Shown: one piece after another, positions 4,195-40,600 of the stretch
Position numbering within the stretch: the first letter of the stretch is position 1
Layout of the letters: each line of letters begins with the position of its first letter
Origin: Flavobacteriales bacterium
Lineage (GTDB): Bacteria > Bacteroidota > Bacteroidia > Flavobacteriales_F > PHOS-HE28
Direction: 5' to 3'
Assembly (NCBI GenBank): GCA_016699575.1
Contig: CP064979.1
Span: 400,824 to 464,823 of the forward strand
Length of the DNA: 64,000 nt
The notes under the pieces: generated by a model
The model's input: only the letters and a program-made list of their open reading frames with translations
Databases searched by the model: none
Told to the model about the DNA's origin: nothing
Translations under genes and position numbers: made by a program

Positions 4195-5418
4195 TCAGTT
4201 GCCGCCCTCCTCGAACCGCGCAGGTGCGGTGTTCACCGGGATCGCCTGCGGCACCATTGTCTCGTCGCGGAAGAAGTCGATGGCGTGGAGGTCGATGAGG
4301 TGCACGTCGGTGAAGTAGTGGTGCAGGATATCGGTGTACGTGCGCCCGCGCCGGGCCATGTGCATGGCGCCCTCCTGGCACAAGCCAACGCCGTGGCCGA
4401 AGCCCCGGCCTTCCATGACCACGCTATCCCCTTCCGGTCGGACGGAGAAGAGACCGCTGTTCAGTTTCCAATCGCTGCGCACCTGCACCACGGGAACGGC
4501 CGGGATGATGCCCGGTAGTTGAAGATTGCTTCTGTCCGCGGGAATGTTCACCGCGGCAGCGACCAGCGCACTGTCGTTGATGTTCACCTTCCACTTGCGG
4601 TGCAGGTAGCCGAGCCAATCGCTGCGGCTGATCGTTCGGGTCCAGGTGGCATGCGGTTCTGCCATGCAAAAGGTGTCGACTACCGAGCGCAGGTACGGTT
4701 CGCTCTTGCTCCACACGTTCTCGGCGTTCACCGTGGCCCCACCACAGTTGCTGTGGAAGGTCGCGTGGATGAGCTTGATACCGGCATCCACCAGCACCAT
4801 GTCTTCAGTAGCCGCCACGGCAGCAAGGATGTCCGCATTCTGCGTTCGACCTTGGTACACCTGGCAATGCACGGCGTCGCACACTTCGAAGCCATCGGGC
4901 AGGTGCTTGCGGATGTTGGTGGTGGCGTACGTGCGGCAGGTGACCGCCTGCAGTTTGTAGTACTCGGCGGTGTGGTCCTTGCCTGCTTCGCTTTGTATGA
5001 CACCCGCCGTGTAGTCTTCCATGCCCACATGGTTCGTGAGCGCCAAGCGCCCCCCCTTGGCATCAACGCGCAGGTGGCCCGGGTAGGTGCGCTCAGACAA
5101 CTTGCTATCGAGCACTTTCAACCGGAACGCGCTCTGCGGCACCTTCTGCACCAATTCGATCCATCCGGCAGTGAACGATGCCGCCAGCGACTTCGCCTGC
5201 AACTTGCCGTTCACCACTTCAACACGCAAACCATCGTTGGCCAAAAGTTCGCCCACGCGCCTCCCATCGGCCATGATGTTGTAGCCGCCGCCCGCGCTGA
5301 GCACCACGATGCGCTCAACGTTCTTATCGCGCAGGATGCCGACACGCACCGCCCGCTCCTGGCCTGCCGAACACAGGAAGAGCAGCACGAAAAGACTACT
5401 GAACAAGGCTTTGCCCAT
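4195..5418 (-). CDS. SpoIID/LytB domain protein (peptidoglycan-acting amidase enhancer-like)
   Basis: Signal peptide MGKALFSSLFVLLFLCSAG at the internal ATG at 5418. Conserved SpoIID-family stretches (FHSNCGG, YLRSV). The upstream in-frame extension to 5742 is Arg/Gly-rich noise that overlaps lpxB. Confidence 0.7.
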   Translation of the reverse strand: MGKALFSSLFVLLFLCSAGQERAVRVGILRDKNVERIVVLSAGGGYNIMADGRRVGELLANDGLRVEVVNGKLQAKSLAASFTAGWIELVQKVPQSAFRLKVLDSKLSERTYPGHLRVDAKGGRLALTNHVGMEDYTAGVIQSEAGKDHTAEYYKLQAVTCRTYATTNIRKHLPDGFEVCDAVHCQVYQGRTQNADILAAVAATEDMVLVDAGIKLIHATFHSNCGGATVNAENVWSKSEPYLRSVVDTFCMAEPHATWTRTISRSDWLGYLHRKWKVNINDSALVAAAVNIPADRSNLQLPGIIPAVPVVQVRSDWKLNSGLFSVRPEGDSVVMEGRGFGHGVGLCQEGAMHMARRGRTYTDILHHYFTDVHLIDLHAIDFFRDETMVPQAIPVNTAPARFEEGGN

Positions 5419-5453
5419 GGCGGGCCCGAAACTACCGGGGACGCCTGCGGGCC

Positions 5454-6566
5454 TCAGGCGGTGCTGTTCAGACTTTTCCACACGGCGCTGGCAACACGCG
5501 CTGATGCACCCGCACCTCCCAGCACATGCAGCAGGTCGGCCATGTCGCGGTGCATGTTGTGGCGGTAGTCCGCATCGTGCAATAGCTGGTCGAGCTCGGC
5601 CCGCAGCACGCGCTCCGTCATGTGCTCCTGTATCAGCTCCTGCACCACGGGTTTGTCCATGATGAGGTTCACCAGGCTGATGTACTTCACCTTTACCAGC
5701 CGCTTGGCCAGCCATACGTTCACCGCGCTGCCTTTGTAGCATACAGCTTCAGGAACGCCGAACAGGGCTGTCTCCAGGGTGGCGGTGCCGCTTGTCACCA
5801 GTGCAGCCTTCGACTTCCGCAGCACGCCGTACGTGTCGCCGACCACCAGCTCTGCGTTTGAGCCGCGCATCAATTGCTCATAAAAGCCTCGTGGCACACT
5901 GGGCGCCGCAGCCACCAGGAAATCGTAGCGCGGGAAGTGCTTGGCCGCCGCCAGCATCACCGGAAGCATGGTGCCGATCTCCTGCTTTCTGCTCCCGGGA
6001 AGCAAGGCTACGTACCGGGAATCTTCCTGGGGTATCTCACGCGGTGGGGCACCAGCGATCTCGTCCAGCAAGGGATGCCCGACGAAATCCACCTCCATGC
6101 CATAGCGCGCGTAGAAGTCCTTCTCGAAAGGCAGGATCGTGAACATGCGGTCCACAACCCTTTTGATGGTGTGCACGCGGCCTTTCTTCCATGCCCAGAT
6201 CTGTGGGCTGATGTAGTAGAACACTTTGATGCCCTGCTCGTGGGCCCACTCCGCAATGCGCAGGTTGAAGCCGGGGTAGTCGATGAGAAAGATCGCATCC
6301 GGCTTCCACTGGGCGATGTCCTCCTTGCAGAGGGACATGTTGCGCAGGATGGTGCGCAGGTTCATCACCACTTCGGCAAAGCCCATGAAAGCGAGCTCGC
6401 GGTAGTGCTTCACGATGTGCGCCCCTTCGGCCTGCATGCGGTCACCGCCCCACGCGCGCACATCCACCGAAGGTGCAATGGCGCGCAATGCCTTCAGGAA
6501 GTTGGCTCCGTGCAGGTCGCCGCTGGCCTCGCCGGCTATAACGTACAAACGTTTGGTCATAACCAA
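5454..6566 (-). CDS. lpxB: lipid-A-disaccharide synthase
   Basis: N-terminus LYVIAGEASGDLHGANFLKAL and a full-length GT19 family pattern. Confidence 0.9.
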   Translation of the reverse strand: MVMTKRLYVIAGEASGDLHGANFLKALRAIAPSVDVRAWGGDRMQAEGAHIVKHYRELAFMGFAEVVMNLRTILRNMSLCKEDIAQWKPDAIFLIDYPGFNLRIAEWAHEQGIKVFYYISPQIWAWKKGRVHTIKRVVDRMFTILPFEKDFYARYGMEVDFVGHPLLDEIAGAPPREIPQEDSRYVALLPGSRKQEIGTMLPVMLAAAKHFPRYDFLVAAAPSVPRGFYEQLMRGSNAELVVGDTYGVLRKSKAALVTSGTATLETALFGVPEAVCYKGSAVNVWLAKRLVKVKYISLVNLIMDKPVVQELIQEHMTERVLRAELDQLLHDADYRHNMHRDMADLLHVLGGAGASARVASAVWKSLNSTA

Positions 6567-11467: not shown

Positions 11468-12856
11468 ATGAGCTACGACGTCATTGTTCTCGGCAGCGGC
11501 CCAGGCGGCTATGTGGCGGCCATCCGTGCCAGCCAACTCGGTTTGAAAACAGCGGTGGTGGAGCGCGAGGCGCTCGGCGGCATCTGCCTCAACTGGGGCT
11601 GCATCCCCACCAAGGCCCTGCTGAAGAGCGCGCAGGTGTTCGAGTACATCAATCACGCGAAGGACTACGGCATCACCGTTAGCGGCGGCAGCGCCGACAT
11701 GAAGGCCGTGGTGCAGCGCAGCCGCGATGTGGCCAAGGGCATGAGCAACGGCGTGCAGTTCTTGATGAAGAAGAACAAGATCGACGTGATCATGGGCACC
11801 GGCATGCTGCAGCCCGGCAAGAAGATCGAAGTGACCGGCGCCGACGGCAAGAAGCAAGTGGTGGAAGGCAAGCACATCATTATAGCTACCGGCGCCCGCA
11901 GCCGTGCTCTGCCCAACCTGCCGCAGGACGGCAAGAAGATCATCGGGTACCGCGAGGCCATGGTGCTGGCCGGGCAGCCCAAGAGCATGGTGGTGGTGGG
12001 CAGCGGTGCCATCGGCAGCGAGTTCGCCTACTTCTACAATGCCATGGGCACCAAGGTGACCTTGGTGGAGTTCATGCCGAACATCGTTCCGGTGGAAGAT
12101 GAGGAAGTGAGCAAGCAGTTGGAGAAGAGCTTCAAAAAGGCCGGCATCGAGGTGATGGTGAGCAGCGAGGTGACCAGCGTGGACACCAAGGGCAAAGGCT
12201 GCGTGGTAACCGTGAAGAACGCCGCTGGCGAGAAGAAGATCGAATGCGATGTGGTCCTGAGCGCCGTGGGCATCGCTGCCAACATCGAAGGGATCGGGCT
12301 GGAGGCCGTGGGCATCGTCACGGACAAAGGCAAGATCAAAGTGAACGAGTTCTATGCCACCAACATGCCGGGCTACTATGCCATCGGCGATGTGACACCA
12401 GGTCAGGCACTGGCACACGTGGCGAGCGCAGAAGGCATCATTTGCGTGGAGAAGATCGCGGGACAGAACCCGCACGCGCTGGACTACAACAACATCCCCG
12501 GCTGCACGTACTGCTCACCCGAAGTGGCGAGCGTGGGCATGACGGAGAAGCAGGCCAAGGAGAAAGGCCTTGCCATCAAGGTGGGCAAGTTCCCCTTCAC
12601 CGCCAGCGGCAAGGCCAGTGCGGGCGGCAACAAGGACGGCTTCGTGAAGCTCATCTTCGATGCCAAGTACGGCGAACTGCTGGGCGCGCACATGATCGGC
12701 GCGAACGTGACGGAAATGATCGCCGAGTGCGTGAGCATCCGCAAGCTGGAGACCACGGGCCACGAGATCATCAAGACCGTGCACCCGCACCCGACGATGA
12801 GCGAGGCCATCATGGAAGCGGCGGCCGCAGCGTACGGGGAGGTCATTCACTTGTGA
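11468..12856 (+). CDS. lpd: dihydrolipoyl dehydrogenase (E3 component)
   Basis: YDVIVLGSGPGGYVAAIRASQLG FAD motif, redox-active LNWGCIPTK disulfide motif, and a C-terminal HPHPT(M)SE interface motif. Confidence 0.9.
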   Translation: MSYDVIVLGSGPGGYVAAIRASQLGLKTAVVEREALGGICLNWGCIPTKALLKSAQVFEYINHAKDYGITVSGGSADMKAVVQRSRDVAKGMSNGVQFLMKKNKIDVIMGTGMLQPGKKIEVTGADGKKQVVEGKHIIIATGARSRALPNLPQDGKKIIGYREAMVLAGQPKSMVVVGSGAIGSEFAYFYNAMGTKVTLVEFMPNIVPVEDEEVSKQLEKSFKKAGIEVMVSSEVTSVDTKGKGCVVTVKNAAGEKKIECDVVLSAVGIAANIEGIGLEAVGIVTDKGKIKVNEFYATNMPGYYAIGDVTPGQALAHVASAEGIICVEKIAGQNPHALDYNNIPGCTYCSPEVASVGMTEKQAKEKGLAIKVGKFPFTASGKASAGGNKDGFVKLIFDAKYGELLGAHMIGANVTEMIAECVSIRKLETTGHEIIKTVHPHPTMSEAIMEAAAAAYGEVIHL

Positions 12857-12861
12857 AGTGG

Positions 12862-12930
12862 AAAGCTGGAAGTTGGAATAGCGAGCGCACCGACTTTCAG
12901 CTTTCCACTTTCTCTTTTCAGCTTTCGTTC
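12862..12930 (+). terminator. hairpin plus T-rich tract after lpd
   Basis: AAGTGGAAAGCTG ... CAGCTTTCCACTT is a 13 bp stem with a loop of about 25 nt, followed by TTCTCTTTTCAGCTTTCG. Confidence 0.4.
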
Positions 12931-27364: not shown

Positions 27365-29416
27365 ATGCCGCCACGCCTACCCTTCCGCTCTCTTCTGTTG
27401 GCCGCGTGCGTTGCGATGGGCGCAACCACGGTGCACGCGCAGGAGGACACCACCGCTTCCTTCAAGTTCAGGCCCACGTTCAGTGTGGGGGCCGGGATGT
27501 TCTCCTTCTTCGGGGACATCGGGGGCAACCACGATGGCTACAGCCCATTGGTAACCCGTCTTGCGTATGAACTGCGAGCCAGCACGGCACTGACCCCTTG
27601 GCTTGAGGGCGGGTTGTTCGCTGTGCACGGCCGCCTCGGCGCCAACGAGCGCAGCCTTTCCCGGAACCTGAACTTCGAGAGCCGTGTGACCATGGGCGGC
27701 CTCATGCTCACGTACAACTTCAAACACCTGGTGAAGCCGACAGCCAAGGTGACGCCCTATCTGAGCGTAGGCTTCGAGAGCTTGGAATTCCTGAGCAAGA
27801 CCGATAGGATGGACCGCGAGGGCCGGGTGTACCACTACTGGAGCGATGGCACTATCCGCGACATCGACGAACAAGCCTCCAACGCTTCGGATGCCGTTGT
27901 GATCCAGCGCGACTACGACCATGAGAGCGATATCCGCGAACTTGACATGGACGGGTTCGGGCAGTACACCGAACGCACGTGGGCCGTTCCTGTTGGTTTC
28001 GGAGCGCGCATGGACCTTGGCTCGGGACTCGACCTCCGCTTGGGTGCACAGATCCATTGGACCTTCACCGACCTTATTGACGGTGTTACGGACGAGAGCG
28101 TGGAGGGCCGCACGGGCGACTCGCGCAACGACCGTATCCTCTACAGCAACTTCACCATCGGCTATGCCATACCGCTGGAGCGCAAGAAGCGCACGAGCAG
28201 CAAGGGCGGCATCGACATCTCGCCGGAGGACATGCAAGCGTTCGTTGCCGATGCGGACCAGGACGGCGATGGCGTGAACGATTTCAAGGACCTCTGCCCG
28301 GGCACGCCCGCTGGCACCAAGGTGGACCAGAACGGCTGCCCGCTCGATTCCGACCTGGACGGCGTGCCCGACCACCTCGATCTGGAAGCCGGCACCACCG
28401 CCGGTGCCCCGGTGGACGCGAACGGGGTGGCCATTACCGATGACGCCTTCCTGAAAAGCTGGCTGAACTTCAAAGACAGCGGCAACGTGAACATCGTGAC
28501 AAGCCGGGTGGAGAGCGTCGGCCCTCGCCGCAGCACCCCGCAGCCCAAGCAGCGCGTGTATGTGGTGCAGGTGGGCAGTGAAGTTGAAGGCATCACTGAA
28601 GCCCAAATGCAGCAACTGCTCAGCATCCCCGATCTGCGCACGGTGGAGCACGGCGATACCATCAGTTTCGTGGTGGGCGGCTACGATGCGCTGCCCGAGG
28701 CCATCCGCCGCCAGATGCAACTGAAGAACGCCGGAGTGAACGGCAAGGTGGTGGCGCAGGACGGCGATGCGCTGGTGAACATCGACGACCAGGTAGCAGC
28801 GGCCACGGCAGGTGTTGGATCGCCTGAGGCCACCACGTCCGGTCCTGCGATCGTACGCGTGCAGTTGGGCGCGTTCAAACAAAAGCTGAGCAAGGACATT
28901 TTCGCTGGCATCGAAGACCTGGTGGTGCTGAAAGGCGATGATGGATTGACGCGCTACTACACCGGAACATTCTCCGATGTGAACCCCGCCGCGGCGCTCA
29001 AAGTGGACATGCTGACGCGCGGGTTCGAGGGTGCTTTCCTCGTGGCGTTCAAGGACGGCAAGCGGGTCTCGTTGAAAGAGGCGGGGGCCAAGCTCACGGA
29101 ACCGGAAGACCTGTCGGCCATGCCCAAAGGAGCCATCAACAAGGAAATGCTGCGGTACCGTGTGCAGCTCGGCACATTCGCAGGCAACGTGCCCAGTGAT
29201 GTGATGAGCAAGTACATCGAGATGGGCAACGTGGAACCCGTGACAAGTCCGGACGCAGTGCGTTACTACTACGGCTCGTTCAAGTCGCGTGCGGAGGCCG
29301 ATGATGCGCTGAAAGCCATCAAGGAGAAAGGGCTTGCGGATGCGTTCCTGGTAGGCGCTGTTGGCAACCGACTGGTGAGCGCGGAGGACGTGGACCGGTT
29401 GTTCGCTGAGCCCTGA
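27365..29416 (+). CDS. outer-membrane protein with thrombospondin type-3 calcium-binding repeats and three C-terminal SPOR-like domains
   Basis: Signal peptide. N-terminal beta-barrel-like region. DADQDGDGVNDFKDLCPGTPAG...DSDLDGVPD TSP3 repeats. VRVQLGAFK..., YRVQLGTFAG..., YVVQVGSE... SPOR-type repeats. Confidence 0.6.
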   Translation: MPPRLPFRSLLLAACVAMGATTVHAQEDTTASFKFRPTFSVGAGMFSFFGDIGGNHDGYSPLVTRLAYELRASTALTPWLEGGLFAVHGRLGANERSLSRNLNFESRVTMGGLMLTYNFKHLVKPTAKVTPYLSVGFESLEFLSKTDRMDREGRVYHYWSDGTIRDIDEQASNASDAVVIQRDYDHESDIRELDMDGFGQYTERTWAVPVGFGARMDLGSGLDLRLGAQIHWTFTDLIDGVTDESVEGRTGDSRNDRILYSNFTIGYAIPLERKKRTSSKGGIDISPEDMQAFVADADQDGDGVNDFKDLCPGTPAGTKVDQNGCPLDSDLDGVPDHLDLEAGTTAGAPVDANGVAITDDAFLKSWLNFKDSGNVNIVTSRVESVGPRRSTPQPKQRVYVVQVGSEVEGITEAQMQQLLSIPDLRTVEHGDTISFVVGGYDALPEAIRRQMQLKNAGVNGKVVAQDGDALVNIDDQVAAATAGVGSPEATTSGPAIVRVQLGAFKQKLSKDIFAGIEDLVVLKGDDGLTRYYTGTFSDVNPAAALKVDMLTRGFEGAFLVAFKDGKRVSLKEAGAKLTEPEDLSAMPKGAINKEMLRYRVQLGTFAGNVPSDVMSKYIEMGNVEPVTSPDAVRYYYGSFKSRAEADDALKAIKEKGLADAFLVGAVGNRLVSAEDVDRLFAEP

Positions 29417-29430
29417 GGCGACCGCCTCAA

Positions 29431-29465
29431 CGAAGAAGGGCGGCCCATGGAGCCGCCCTTCTTCG
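29431..29465. terminator. bidirectional intrinsic terminator between convergent genes
   Basis: Perfect 13 bp stem CGAAGAAGGGCGG/CCGCCCTTCTTCG with an 8 nt loop. Confidence 0.6.
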
Positions 29466-29476
29466 TTCCGCGCATG

Positions 29477-31135
29477 CTAACGCTGGACCACTACAGGCTG
29501 GACGGCCTGAACGACCCCATCGCTCCGCAGTTCAACAAGGTAGGCTCCGTCGGCCAGGTCGCTCACATCAACGCTCACCGGCCCACGGGAAGACACGGCA
29601 CGAAGCTTCAGCAGGCGGCCCGACATGTCGATCAGACGGACCTCATCAAGCTCTACGACGCCTTGCACCGTGATGTTGATGAGATCGTGTGCCGGGTTGG
29701 GGTAGAGCAGAAAAAGCCCAGCTCCGGCATTCTCCTCCACACTGTAGATGCCGCACGGGTTGTAGGTCCCGTCCAAGGTGGTGGCGCCGCTGTTCGTGGG
29801 ATCGAGCCAAACGTGCAGTTCTTCGTTGGCCGGGTTGGGGTTCTGAGCACCCCAGTGATAGCTCATCTTGCCGAAATAGTCCTGCACCGTTGGGCCTGTG
29901 CCATTGCCACAACCGTTCACCGTGCAACAAGACCCGCCACCGGTGAGCGTGCCGACGATGCGGTGGTTCTGGTTGAAAATGGGTGATCCGCTGCTACCGC
30001 CCTCGGTTACGCCCCAACCGTTCGTTGTCGCCACCCAGGTCACCCGCCAATGTGCCCCGCTCGCGTTCCACCACGTACCACTGAGCAGATTGCTGGAATA
30101 GGTGCTGATCTTCTTCTCGTCACCGGCGGGATGGTGTACGCACACCCCGGCGGTGCTCGTGCCTCCGGACGCGTCCCACCCGTTGAAGTACGGAAAGAAG
30201 TTGGCGGGTACCTGGTTATTGGCTTCCACGAGAAGGAAATCACTGCCGTTCGTGGCCCCCCCACAGTTGCTGTCGGCGCGCCGGGCACAACCTGTCATCA
30301 CCTTGTTGGCCAGCGCAACCCCGGTTCCGCAGCCACTGCGTTGGTAGCGGAAGTAGAACTTGTAGTTGTTGAAGTTCGCATCTGTGCTGTTCAAGCCGCA
30401 GTGCAGCGCCGTTAGGAAAAATGGTTTGCAATCCAGAGCAGTGTTGTTGACCAGTGATCCGCTGCACCAGCCGAGACCACCGGGTTCCACAACGCTGATC
30501 CGCACAACACCGTCCCGCTCCTGTTCCCATGCATTGCCCTCGGGGCACTCCACATCCACTTCGCAAGCATCGGCCTTGGCCGCGCCAACGAACCTGTAGG
30601 CATGCCCAACGCCGGTGATCACGAAATGCCCCTGACCGGTCACAACAGCAGGCTCGTAGTACTCGACGATGGAGCGCGGCCCCATGATCTGCGCGGTGGT
30701 GAACTGCCCGCTCGAATGGTTGTTGTACGAGGTGAACCCGCCCAACAGCTCTTCCGTCGTGGGTGAGTAAACGTGCAAAACCGCTCCCGCGGGAAGCGCA
30801 AAATCCTCGAAGAAGAGTTCCGTGGCCAAGGCACCGGGGCTCTCAATGGCAGTTCGCCAAACGCGATCACCGTTGGGCAATGGGGTCCATTGGCCATCGG
30901 TCAGCGGGGCGATGGAAACCGGCAAGATCCGCCCGTAGAGCGGCAGACTTCCTTCCGCAGCGCGCTGGTCGTCTTCAATGGCTACTTGAGCGGCATCCAG
31001 CCCCACGGTGCCAAGAAGAGGCACATTGTTGAAGGACCAACCATGGCGCTTCGAAAATGGCGTTCCACCAACGCTCTCTTGGCCAATGGCCGCAGTAACC
31101 AAAACGACAAGGAGTACTGTAACAAGGCATCGCAT
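29477..31135 (-). CDS. S1-family (trypsin-like) serine endopeptidase with a T9SS C-terminal sorting domain
   Basis: Catalytic-triad contexts TALHCG (His) and GGSSGSPIF (Ser). C-terminal YPNPAHDLINITV...YLVELRSDGVVQAVQPVVVQR Por secretion tail. Signal peptide MRCLVTVLLVVLV (start is approximate). Confidence 0.7.
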   Translation of the reverse strand: MRCLVTVLLVVLVTAAIGQESVGGTPFSKRHGWSFNNVPLLGTVGLDAAQVAIEDDQRAAEGSLPLYGRILPVSIAPLTDGQWTPLPNGDRVWRTAIESPGALATELFFEDFALPAGAVLHVYSPTTEELLGGFTSYNNHSSGQFTTAQIMGPRSIVEYYEPAVVTGQGHFVITGVGHAYRFVGAAKADACEVDVECPEGNAWEQERDGVVRISVVEPGGLGWCSGSLVNNTALDCKPFFLTALHCGLNSTDANFNNYKFYFRYQRSGCGTGVALANKVMTGCARRADSNCGGATNGSDFLLVEANNQVPANFFPYFNGWDASGGTSTAGVCVHHPAGDEKKISTYSSNLLSGTWWNASGAHWRVTWVATTNGWGVTEGGSSGSPIFNQNHRIVGTLTGGGSCCTVNGCGNGTGPTVQDYFGKMSYHWGAQNPNPANEELHVWLDPTNSGATTLDGTYNPCGIYSVEENAGAGLFLLYPNPAHDLINITVQGVVELDEVRLIDMSGRLLKLRAVSSRGPVSVDVSDLADGAYLVELRSDGVVQAVQPVVVQR

Positions 31136-31182
31136 AGTGACCGGGGTTTGCATCGGCGCTAATGTAGAAGGGCTCAACATGG

Positions 31183-37511: not shown

Positions 37512-37572
37512 GGTAGGTGGAAGTCTGGTCCGCAAAGAACGCATGAGCCCTTGAAGAAATTTCCCACCATAG

Positions 37573-37584
37573 TATGCATGCATA
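37573..37584. promoter_or_regulatory. palindromic operator candidate TATGCATGCATA upstream of the MarR gene
   Basis: Perfect 12 bp palindrome 46 bp upstream of the MarR start codon. A near-identical TTATGCGTGCATAA lies upstream of the acyl-CoA dehydrogenase gene at 53373. Confidence 0.5.
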
Positions 37585-37618
37585 ACAAATGCGGATACCT
37601 TGGGGGCCAAGTCAACCG

Positions 37619-38053
37619 GGGATGAAGCCTGAAGAGACGATCGACTTTCCGATCCGCCGTGTGTGGAGCCGGATTTCACGCATCTACAACACCGAGGCGG
37701 CCAAGTACGGTGGCAGCATGGCCGTGGGCCAGATCCTGCTGAACATCGAGCCGGAGGGCACGCCCAGCACCAAGCTTGGTCCCAAGATGGGCATGGAGGC
37801 ACGCAGCCTTGTGCGCACGTTGCAGGCCATGGAGGACGAAGGATTGATCAAGCGCATCGCCGACAAGAGCGACAAGCGCGTGGTGCGCATCCACCTCACT
37901 GCGAAGGGCAAGCAGATGCGCGACGTGAGCCGCAACACCGTGATCAGATTCAACGAGGCGGTGCAGAGCCGTTTCACGACGGCGCAACTGAACAACTTCC
38001 GGCAGGTGATGTCGGAACTGGACCATATTCTCGAACACGAACAACTTTTCTGA
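37619..38053 (+). CDS. MarR family transcriptional regulator
   Basis: Winged-HTH pattern typical of MarR (...MAVGQILLNIEP...LVRTLQAMEDEGLIKRIADKSDKRVVRIHLTAKGK). Confidence 0.8.
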   Translation, partial: GMKPEETIDFPIRRVWSRISRIYNTEAAKYGGSMAVGQILLNIEPEGTPSTKLGPKMGMEARSLVRTLQAMEDEGLIKRIADKSDKRVVRIHLTAKGKQMRDVSRNTVIRFNEAVQSRFTTAQLNNFRQVMSELDHILEHEQLF

Positions 38054-38056
38054 TAC

Positions 38057-38150
38057 TCACCACAGAGGCACAGAGGACACCGAGAAGAACAAGATGAACA
38101 CCGTTGCTCATCAATCGCATTCCTCCGTGCCCTCTGTGCCTCTGTGGTGA
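38057..38150 (+). promoter_or_regulatory. 20 bp perfect inverted repeat (long hairpin) in the fadB leader, enclosing an 18-codon ORF
   Basis: TCACCACAGAGGCACAGAGG ... CCTCTGTGCCTCTGTGGTGA are exact reverse complements with a 54 nt loop. The loop holds ATG...TGA encoding MNTVAHQSHSSVPSVPLW. Confidence 0.6.
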
Positions 38151-38165
38151 AGCATTCACACACAC

Positions 38166-40544
38166 ATGAGCAAACGAAACATCCGCAAAGTCGCCGTGCT
38201 CGGCAGCGGCGTCATGGGCAGCCGCATTGCCTGCCACTTCGCGAACACCGGCACCGAAGTGCTGCTGCTCGACATTCCAGCCAAGGAAGGTCCGCGCAAC
38301 AAGATCGTGGACGACGCACTCGCCGCCGCGATCAAGAGCAGTCCGGCGCCCCTGTACGATGCACGCTTCGCCAAGCGCATCAGCACCGGCAACTTCGACG
38401 ACGACCTGCCCAAGATCAAGGACTGCGACTGGATCATCGAGGTCGTGATCGAGCGGCTCGACATCAAGCAGCAACTGCTGGAGAAGGTGGAGAAGCACCG
38501 TACACCGGGCACGCTCATCACCACCAACACCAGCGGCATCCCGATCCACGCCATCAGCGCGGGCCGAAGCGACGACTTCCGCAGGCACTTCTGCGGCACG
38601 CACTTCTTCAACCCGCCGCGCTACCTGCCGCTGCTGGAGCTGATCCCCGGTCCGGACACCGACCCCGCGGTGCTCGCCTTCCTGGAGGACTACGGCCAGC
38701 GCATCCTTGGCAAGGTCACGGTGATGGCCAAGGACACGCCCGCCTTCGTGGCCAACCGCATCGGCGTGTTCGGCATCATGGACGTGTTCCACCTCGTCAC
38801 CGACATGGGCCTTACGGTGGAGGAAGTGGACCGCCTCACCGGCCCCGTGATCGGCCACCCGAAGAGCGCCACCTTCCGCACCGCCGACGTGGTGGGCCTC
38901 GACACGCTGGTGAAAGTCGCGCAGGGCGTGAAGGACAACTGCCCGCACGACGAGCGCAACAGCCTCTTCAGCATTCCGGAGTACCTGCAGCAGATGGTGG
39001 AGAAGAACATGCTCGGCAGCAAGACCGGCAAGGGCTTCTTCTTCAAGGACCGCAACTCACCCAAGGGCGAGATCCTCTCCCTCGACCTGAAGACGCTGGA
39101 GTACAAGCCACAGGTGAAGCCCAAGTTCGCCACGCTGGACGCGGCGAAAAAGGTGGATGACCTGCGCGAGCGCCTCAAACTGGTGTACAACGGCACCGAC
39201 AAGGCCGGCGAATTCTACCGCCGTTCGTTCCAGGCGATGTTCGCATACGTGAGCCACCGCATCCCCGAGATCAGCGACGAGCTGTACAAGATCGACGACG
39301 GCATGCGCGCCGGCTTCGGCTGGGAGGCGGGTCCGTTCGAGACCTGGGACGCCATCGGAGTGCAACAAGTGAAAGATGAAATAGGAAAGCTGAAAGCTGA
39401 AAGTGGAAATGCGCTGACCATCGCGCCATGGGTGGATGAGATGCTTGCGGCTGGTCATACTTCGTTCTACAAAGTGGAGCAGGGCCAACGCCTTTACTAC
39501 GATGTCGCGAGCAAGAGCTACAAGCCGGTGCCACGCGCGGAAGGCTTGATCGTTCTCAACGAATTGCCAGAAAGCAGCATCGTGTGGAAGAACAGCGCCG
39601 CCACCGTGCGTCACCTCAGCGATGGCATCCTGAGCGTGAGCTGGACGAGCAAGATGAACACCATCGGCGCGGAGGTGATCCAGGGCCTCAACAAAGCCAT
39701 CGACCTCGCCGAGCAGGGCTACAAAGGCCTGGTGGTCTACAACGACGGCGCCAACTTCAGCGCGGGCGCCAACGTGGGCATGATCTTCATGATGGCCGTG
39801 GAGCAGGAGTACGACGACCTGGAGATGGCCGTGCGCACCTTCCAGAACACCATGATGCGCATGCGCTACAGCAGCATCCCCGTGGTGGCGGCCCCGCACC
39901 AACTGTGCCTGGGCGGCGGCACCGAGCTCTGCCTGCACGCGGACAAGGTGGTGGCGCACGCCGAGACCTACATGGGCCTGGTGGAATTCGGCGTGGGCGT
40001 GATCCCCGGCGGCGGCGGCACCAAGGAATTCGCCCTGCGCCTCGCCGACGAGCTGAAGGAGGGCGACATCCGCATCAACGCCATGCGCGAGCGCTTCCTC
40101 ACCATCGGCCAGGCCAAGGTGGCCACCAGCGGGCACGAGGCTTTCACGTTAGGCTACTTGCGTCGCGGCCAGGACGAGGTCATTGTCAGCCGCGCCCACC
40201 AGCTGGCCTACGCCAAGGCCTGCGCGCTGGAGCTGTGGAACAAGGGCTACACCAAGCCCGCACCGCGTAAGGACATCAAGGTGCTCGGCCAGGAAGGCCT
40301 CGGCATCGTGTACGTGGGCGCCAACAGCATGCTCAGCGGCAACTACATCAGCCAGCACGATGCGCTGATCAGCGAGAAGCTGGGCTATGTGCTATGCGGG
40401 GGTGACCTGAGCGAGGCTACGGAGGTCTCCGAGCAATACCTGCTGGACCTGGAGCGGAAAGCCTTCGTGGAGCTGTGTATGCAGCGGAAGACGCTCGAGA
40501 GACTTCAGTCGATCATTACTACGGGGAAAGTGTTGCGGAATTGA
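38166..40544 (+). CDS. fadB: bifunctional 3-hydroxyacyl-CoA dehydrogenase / enoyl-CoA hydratase (HCDH N-terminal, ECH C-terminal)
   Basis: N-terminal KVAVLGSGVMGSRIA Rossmann motif and HFFNPP. C-terminal crotonase fold VAAPHQLCLGGGTELCLHAD. About 792 aa. Confidence 0.9.
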   Translation: MSKRNIRKVAVLGSGVMGSRIACHFANTGTEVLLLDIPAKEGPRNKIVDDALAAAIKSSPAPLYDARFAKRISTGNFDDDLPKIKDCDWIIEVVIERLDIKQQLLEKVEKHRTPGTLITTNTSGIPIHAISAGRSDDFRRHFCGTHFFNPPRYLPLLELIPGPDTDPAVLAFLEDYGQRILGKVTVMAKDTPAFVANRIGVFGIMDVFHLVTDMGLTVEEVDRLTGPVIGHPKSATFRTADVVGLDTLVKVAQGVKDNCPHDERNSLFSIPEYLQQMVEKNMLGSKTGKGFFFKDRNSPKGEILSLDLKTLEYKPQVKPKFATLDAAKKVDDLRERLKLVYNGTDKAGEFYRRSFQAMFAYVSHRIPEISDELYKIDDGMRAGFGWEAGPFETWDAIGVQQVKDEIGKLKAESGNALTIAPWVDEMLAAGHTSFYKVEQGQRLYYDVASKSYKPVPRAEGLIVLNELPESSIVWKNSAATVRHLSDGILSVSWTSKMNTIGAEVIQGLNKAIDLAEQGYKGLVVYNDGANFSAGANVGMIFMMAVEQEYDDLEMAVRTFQNTMMRMRYSSIPVVAAPHQLCLGGGTELCLHADKVVAHAETYMGLVEFGVGVIPGGGGTKEFALRLADELKEGDIRINAMRERFLTIGQAKVATSGHEAFTLGYLRRGQDEVIVSRAHQLAYAKACALELWNKGYTKPAPRKDIKVLGQEGLGIVYVGANSMLSGNYISQHDALISEKLGYVLCGGDLSEATEVSEQYLLDLERKAFVELCMQRKTLERLQSIITTGKVLRN

Positions 40545-40600
40545 ACCGACAAAACGACGATCCCGTGTCACACGCGTTCAGCTATAAGCTCGCCAAGATG

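Follow-up and report, generated by a model that had tools for sequence, protein, structure and literature searches.

The inverted repeat between marR and fadB, at positions 38057-38150 of the window (the whole 64,000-nucleotide stretch of Flavobacteriales DNA analyzed here), is best read by analogy with the cyanobacterial STRR hairpins or with REP elements, that is, as an intercistronic, dispensable stem-loop. With moderate confidence, we assign it to a widespread class of intergenic palindromes with tandem-repeat arms and place this copy inside the marR-fadB operon. Comparison of orthologous junctions shows that the hairpin is old at this place, that its arm sequence turns over while the pairing is kept, and that it can be lost. 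At the locus itself, a tempting leader-peptide switch for fadB is discarded and attention shifts to a likely control site upstream of marR. The arm of ~20-30 nt recurs at gene junctions in gut Bacteroides, soil Sorangium, cyanobacteria, and phages; no associated enzyme was found for it and there is no Rfam entry. We consider the octamer family more interesting than the marR-fadB locus.

The hairpin and its neighbors

Upstream of the hairpin lies marR, encoding a MarR-family regulator of 143 amino acids (37622-38053, plus strand), the start of which agrees with its homologues. The mechanical list of open reading frames (ORFs) began this gene at the upstream ATG at 37589, yielding 154 amino acids; because nearly all marR homologues encode 143 amino acids, the start is most likely 37622. 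The nearest relatives of this MarR protein are found in Flavobacteriales metagenome-assembled genomes. Downstream lies a fadB-like gene (38166-40544, plus strand) for a 3-hydroxyacyl-CoA dehydrogenase/enoyl-CoA hydratase of 792 amino acids, whose domain order, with the dehydrogenase at the N terminus, is that of the staphylococcal FadB model.

Only 3 nt separate the end of marR (38053) from the stem, and 15 nt separate the stem from the fadB ATG, the latter distance as given in the earlier note. That note's central observation also holds: the 20 nt at 38057-38076 (TCACCACAGAGGCACAGAGG) are the exact reverse complement of 38131-38150 (CCTCTGTGCCTCTGTGGTGA), a repeat far beyond chance, with ~6e-6 expected per 64 kb by our own arithmetic. 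With 93% complementarity, the inverted repeat reaches 28 nt per arm (38057-38084 / 38123-38150), and the arms are then separated by 38 nt. Each arm consists of two exact tandem octamers, CACAGAGG, and a degenerate third unit. The left arm (38057-38084, perfect core 38057-38076) reads TCACC, two copies of CACAGAGG, and the degenerate unit ACACCGAG, and belongs to a T-free, purine/C-rich run that by its sequence reaches ~38092; such T-free runs are found family-wide. The right arm (38123-38150, perfect core 38131-38150) reads CTCCGTGC, two copies of CCTCTGTG, and GTGA, and the sequence is A-free from ~38119. The variable center, or loop (38085-38122), holds a small inner stem (38093-38112) and has no alignable counterpart in most orthologues or in the other family copies. 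Between the stem and the fadB ATG lies an unstructured A/C-rich leader, AGCATTCACACACAC (38151-38165, plus strand).

The folding energy as RNA is -54.9 kcal/mol for the plus strand (z = -7.95) and -75.5 kcal/mol for the minus strand (z = -9.5); for either strand, none of 200 shuffles folded as well. The region 38057-38150 forms a single long hairpin, and we found no alternative hairpin or alternative pairing within it. No Rfam covariance model matched the window hairpin, and an Rfam search of the region with E values up to 10 returned only sub-threshold, generic miRNA-precursor models, which reflect the long hairpin and nothing more. Within the 64-kb window, this is the single example of a tandem-octamer inverted repeat.

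Arm turnover, kept pairing, and loss at orthologous junctions

Relatives were gathered from protein look-ups and by scanning metagenomes, and nearly every high-GC Flavobacteriales relative has a similarly built hairpin, at MarR identities of 62-93% and in spacers of 87-155 nt. The arm units at these orthologous junctions include CACAGAGG, CGCAGAGA, CGCAACGA, CGCTACGA, CGCCAAG, and GNGAGAGT, and pairing is kept despite these differences between lineages. Past the stem there is always a short A/C-rich leader without structure. Low-GC relatives, with MarR identities of at most 61%, have short AT-rich spacers without structure. The earlier note had proposed comparing stem and small ORF across related genomes and had named a stem missing from orthologous leaders as the observation that would count against it. 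What we find is a stem in about 20 related lineages, with its pairing kept, and its absence from five; the small ORF, by contrast, varies in frame, sequence, and presence. Because pairing has been kept through complete changes of arm sequence in these ~20 lineages, a structural role between marR and fadB is possible.

In eight aligned orthologues, 95% of the cells are paired on the minus strand, with 12 pairs changed on both sides, a result that none of 500 shuffles reached; on the plus strand, 94% are paired and 11 pairs have changed on both sides. These arm changes do not look like independent pairwise compensation. Rather, they are concerted over the tandem units: the same A-to-G change appears in both units of both arms, L244 carries an A-to-T change in all three left-arm units with an uncompensated right arm, and L246 has one unit more than L187. 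Such concerted changes point to repeat dynamics, with slippage and correction of one arm by the other, or to a different family member having taken the place of the original. For the variant arms of L187 and L191 there are no matches in viral contigs, so that they may be local derivatives.

In five lineages the hairpin is absent and the marR stop is joined directly to the fadB ATG. One identical MarR protein occurs in both states, with the hairpin in L121 and L123 and without it in L122, L124, and L125, where TAG abuts ATG; L250, L257, L259, and L201 likewise have no hairpin, and their junctions read TGAATG, ATGAATG, or TAAATG. Hairpin-bearing and hairpin-free sites have nearly identical flanks, and their alignment contains no target-site duplication; the flanks of other copies are variable. 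The L121 and L123 hairpins share identical arms around a diverged center. Compared with window positions 37572-40547, hairpin-bearing L121 is 89.7% identical throughout, whereas hairpin-free L122 is 92% identical in fadB and 86% in marR, a pattern that hints at recombination at or near the junction.

A few sequences break at the element. In L126 (3433-3612), the DNA adjoining the right end of the hairpin has no relation to fadB; contigs L186 and L196 stop within the left arm, and in L199 a run of N starts there. These breaks are assembly breaks or recombination at the element.

A family of intergenic palindromes and its known counterparts

The 18-mer arm core ACCACAGAGGCACAGAGG was found by exact search, with one genome per species, in at least 120 genome stretches from at least 13 phyla; our own arithmetic gives ~17 matches by chance under a uniform expectation. 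Among the matches listed, the phyla are Pseudomonadota, Planctomycetota, Cyanobacteriota, Acidobacteriota, Gemmatimonadota, Chloroflexota, Myxococcota, Verrucomicrobiota, Bacteroidota, Spirochaetota, Chlamydiota, Nitrospirota, and Thermodesulfobacteriota. Cultured carriers include Sorangium, Anabaena/Nostoc, Gemmatirosa, and Bacteroides finegoldii, and BLAST against plasmid records recovered copies in cultured Gemmatirosa, Anabaena, Nostoc, Calothrix, and B. finegoldii. In viral contigs, the core occurs in 58 stretches and the variant CACGGAGG in 33, and a permuted 18-mer of the same composition has no matches there. A BLAST search of the window element against annotated phages returned no match. 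The proposal that the element is specific to fadB does not survive this distribution, as the same arms stand at hundreds of unrelated junctions in at least 13 phyla and in phages.

We collected 91 distinct complete hairpins of 47-288 nt, mostly intergenic. Their common form begins with (T)TCACC or TGAACC, continues with tandem ACRGAGG-type units and a variable center, and closes with an inverted copy ending in GGTGA(A) or GGTTCA; the 5' arms lack T over 18-66 nt. The flanking genes are co-directional for 48 copies, convergent for 14, and divergent for six, and many copies are within 20 nt of both the upstream stop and the downstream start. The centers of different copies are unrelated, and copies within one phage share only 30-45 nt of arm, so that the repeated unit is the arm. 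Single arms occur as well, most often just past a stop codon (35 of 81).

Several arrangements depart from a lone inverted pair. L106 (6724-6992), L015, and L039 carry head-to-tail arrays of arms, with a module and spacer every ~48 nt and no inverted pair. The phage contigs L137, L143, L153, L167, and L169 (9.6-12 kb) have three to six hairpins each, most of them with tandem-repeat arms; the units are others, for example CACGAAGR, CGCGAAGA, and CGCAAAGG, and many hairpins have TCAC...GTGA ends. Between phages L137 and L136, ~175 nt of such repeats differ at one gene junction. In Bacteroides finegoldii (L322, 2470-2684), a family copy (TCACCACAGAGGACGCAGAGGACACAGAG ... GTGGTGGA) directly follows a classical terminator hairpin with a T-run between convergent genes, and encloses a second, unrelated palindrome.

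The search for a mobilizer gave no candidate. All-against-all clustering of 5,187 ORFs in the 8-14 kb surrounding 210 copies revealed no recurrent transposase or RAYT gene; the clusters were generic only (ABC ATPase, histidine kinase, phage terminase, and tail proteins). We found no autonomous element with the same ends, and distant arm pairs enclose ordinary genes. A link to genes of the GxxExxY type (PD-(D/E)XK) was rejected, as only three of 211 loci have one: in L033 (1096-1365) a truncated gene of this type lies inside a Prevotella hairpin of the octamer-arm family, and in L044 (~5380-5900), from a Phycisphaerales metagenome-assembled genome, 8 nt separate a single arm from the start of an intact one. 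An integron attC site was likewise rejected: attC core sites have the form R''/R' = RYYYAAC ... GTTRRRY, which the hairpin ends TCACC...GGTGA do not fit. Searching 18 family loci against Rfam at gathering thresholds produced nothing that overlaps a family copy; at an unrelated locus in L090 (2588-2772), ~700 nt from a family copy, two Acido-Lenti-1 RNA matches exceed the gathering score. A literature search for the arm sequences returned human primers only, and a limited literature search found no description of the octamer family or of its spread across phyla.

Among described systems, the cyanobacterial hairpins built of STRR (short tandemly repeated repetitive) sequences come closest. They occur between hupS and hupL and in other intergenic regions, are built of 7-bp units, and have been proposed to act in transcript stability or translational coupling (PMC2670836). 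The present hairpins resemble them as intergenic hairpins between co-transcribed genes, with arms of tandem short repeats in inverted orientation (PMC2670836), as candidates for the same roles, and in intergenic regions that are highly variable yet structured among close relatives; at the marR-fadB junction, unit number and unit sequence vary among relatives. They differ in having an octamer (CACAGAGG and variants) in Flavobacteriales rather than 7-bp units in filamentous cyanobacteria, and in how widely the arm with its TCACC/GGTGA ends occurs (at least 13 phyla, and phages), a spread that the literature compared does not report for STRR. REP/BIME elements and REPINs are likewise extragenic stem-loops, transcribed within operons and polymorphic in presence (PMC3733652, PMC3116915), and share with our copies the enrichment between co-directional or convergent genes and the depletion between divergent ones (here the 48, 14, and six copies given above). 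REP/REPIN sequences are, however, defined by a GTAG or CGTC head on a palindromic unit of 20-40 bp (PMC3733652). Our copies have neither head, their arms are tandem T-free/A-free octamers that are not internally palindromic, no RAYT gene was found nearby, and the copy number is low, with one in the 64-kb window.

MITEs share the terminal inverted repeats, the small non-coding body, the intergenic position, and the presence/absence polymorphism, for which the L121/L123 versus L122/L124/L125 sites and the phage pair L137 and L136 provide examples. Unlike MITEs, the copies described here show no target-site duplication and have unrelated interiors, no parent insertion sequence with the same ends was found, and the octamer-family arms also occur singly or in direct arrays. 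TAACTGA heptamers are intergenic direct repeats of Beggiatoaceae, Cyanobacteria, and Bacteroidetes (PMC4679880), comparable as short tandem repeats near gene boundaries in distant phyla, with no evident transfer mechanism and with a suspected post-transcriptional role (PMC4679880); they differ in unit and sequence and are direct repeats that form no hairpins. The intrastrand-triplex repeats (PMC4666352) appear to have a different G/C-rich motif and were set aside.

We suggest, tentatively and with rather less confidence than we place in the class assignment of the window hairpin, that the copies of the octamer family constitute an undescribed cross-phylum superfamily of the form TCACC(ACRGAGGC)n ... 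(GCCTCYGT)nGGTGA, present in at least 13 phyla and in phages and without a transposase. Such a superfamily might represent small DNA of a new kind, mobile or self-propagating, or else a general operon-punctuation module that gates downstream translation: its UCACC/GGUGA ends resemble a ribosome-binding pair, UCACC being the sequence found in the 16S rRNA 3' tail. The spacing between the GGUGA right end, taken as a sequestered ribosome-binding site, and the start codon fits about half of the clear cases and not the rest, and dependence on sites of this kind is not expected in Flavobacteriales. Should the copies form a single family, two questions arise: how so small a sequence spreads or regenerates across phyla, and whether the arm shapes expression within operons.

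Small ORF, strands, and operator

The ORF of 18 codons described in the earlier note is present (38094-38150, plus strand; ATG at 38094, TGA at 38148-38150; product MNTVAHQSHSSVPSVPLW), and its stop does fall within the right arm. It is a by-product of stop-free arms and an ATG in the loop. A 5' arm without T implies a 3' arm without A, and neither can then hold a stop codon; any ATG in the center therefore opens an ORF through the right arm. Stop-free arms account for spurious small ORFs in this way, and the element possibly accounts for contig breaks in metagenome assemblies. Among orthologues, contig L185 has a small ORF in the same frame, contigs L121 and L195 have one of 25 codons in another frame that ends on a TGA overlapping the fadB ATG, contig L191 has one of 33 codons with its TAA directly before the fadB ATG, and contig L197 has no ATG in the loop. 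With frame, length, sequence, and presence all varying, with such an ORF expected from composition, and with no alternative hairpin, the leader-peptide attenuator proposed earlier falls away; as far as the sequences go, a conserved leader peptide is excluded. The suggestion of a terminator for marR fares no better, as the plus strand offers no terminator-like site: the stem is followed by AGCATTCACACAC and not by a U-tract.

What remains to be weighed is whether the hairpin serves this locus in some other way. It could be a cis-regulatory RNA hairpin specific to marR-fadB and kept by selection on its structure, for example as a place where RNase III processes the transcript, as a partial attenuator, or by insulating the start of fadB translation, with the family likeness being secondary. 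Its recurrence at ~20 orthologous junctions across 62-93% MarR identity with compensatory changes, and the A/C-rich leader that always follows the stem, speak for this reading, and long retention with kept pairing at one junction could mean selection for a locus-specific function. We nevertheless consider it unlikely: five lineages dispense with the hairpin, sense pairing is systematically worse than antisense pairing, the concerted changes across units (in L244 in one arm only) better fit repeat dynamics, identical arms stand at unrelated junctions in many phyla, and there is no U-tract. A modified form of the leader-peptide idea would have ribosomes traverse the right arm within a small bridging ORF, open the stem, and stop near the fadB ATG; it is weakly possible that this restores the translational coupling broken by the insertion and gives translation through the stem a role. 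The fadB start context bears on it, as it reads ATGA, with a TGA over the start codon (window 38166-38169), in 19 of 20 hairpin alleles and ATGG in four of five hairpin-free alleles. Moreover, 12 of the 19 ATGA alleles have an ATG-started ORF that ends on this TGA, several of them starting just past the marR stop (TGAAATG). The window is not among the 12; its own ORF uses a different frame and terminates 15 nt short of fadB. The remaining seven alleles have no ATG-started ORF in that frame, neither frame nor peptide is conserved, four of the five nucleotide differences between the window ORF and that of L185 change an amino acid, and stop-free arms make such ORFs likely by chance. A bridging ORF thus strikes us as improbable.

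Two further readings look away from the sense transcript. In every hairpin allele that we folded (sets of 8 and 14 alleles that partly overlap), the antisense stem is stronger than the sense stem (in the window, for example, -72 versus -54 kcal/mol), since wherever A.C is mismatched on the sense strand the antisense strand has a G.U pair. A sense stem that is always weaker argues against optimization of a sense RNA hairpin, and it speaks in favor of a functional minus strand, either as an antisense RNA element or as a single-stranded DNA hairpin for a strand-specific enzyme such as an HUH nuclease of the kind that acts on REP or IS200/IS605 hairpins. Family-wide, there is no such bias relative to gene direction, with 18 cases favoring each strand. 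The minus strand here also has neither a gene nor an evident promoter, and no HUH or RAYT gene recurs near the copies. The asymmetry agrees, besides, with the composition of the window, where A exceeds T on the plus strand in 14 of 15 segments (skew +0.02 to +0.13) and GC skew is slightly negative in most; we tentatively consider strand composition skew a plausible cause of the weaker sense stem, and give a functional minus strand very little credence. Least credible, to the point of being almost negligible, is that the MarR protein made from the upstream gene uses the hairpin as its operator, a notion suggested by an inverted repeat adjoining a MarR gene. The arms are 38-54 nt apart, a spacing not found in MarR sites as these are generally described, and they differ wholly in sequence among orthologues whose MarR proteins are 85-93% identical. 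The arms are not conserved along with MarR, and an operator at this position is not supported. A different palindrome of 12 bp, TATGCATGCATA (37573-37584), lies ~38 nt upstream of the marR ATG and is kept as TATGCRYGCATA in 20 of 21 sequences compared, whether the hairpin is present or absent and including a relative with 59% MarR identity. From its conservation, this palindrome is a likely candidate for the MarR operator (or a promoter element), and it would be a likelier operator than the hairpin arms.

If the hairpin is, as we favor, a copy of the widespread palindrome class, it would persist mainly through processes acting on the DNA, with the tandem units slipping and the two arms correcting each other. 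The stem-loop would be transcribed together with the marR-fadB operon and would replace an ancestral direct stop/start junction (TGAATG, TAGATG, or TAAATG), and this replacement would uncouple fadB translation from that of marR. It may serve as a barrier to 3' exonucleases or as an RNase III substrate, in which case the regulator and enzyme segments of the mRNA could differ in stability. Control by fatty acids would be exerted at the conserved palindrome upstream of marR and not at the hairpin.

Two other inverted repeats in the window are of different build. At 29429-29467, a perfect repeat of 16-18 nt with a loop of 3-7 nt lies between the convergent ORFs 27365-29416 (plus strand) and 29477-31180 (minus strand) and looks like a bidirectional terminator. 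At 12856-12910, a 21-nt repeat with 90% complementarity and a 13-nt loop (AAGTGGAAAGCTGGAAGTTGG / CCGACTTTCAGCTTTCCACTT) stands at an ORF boundary.
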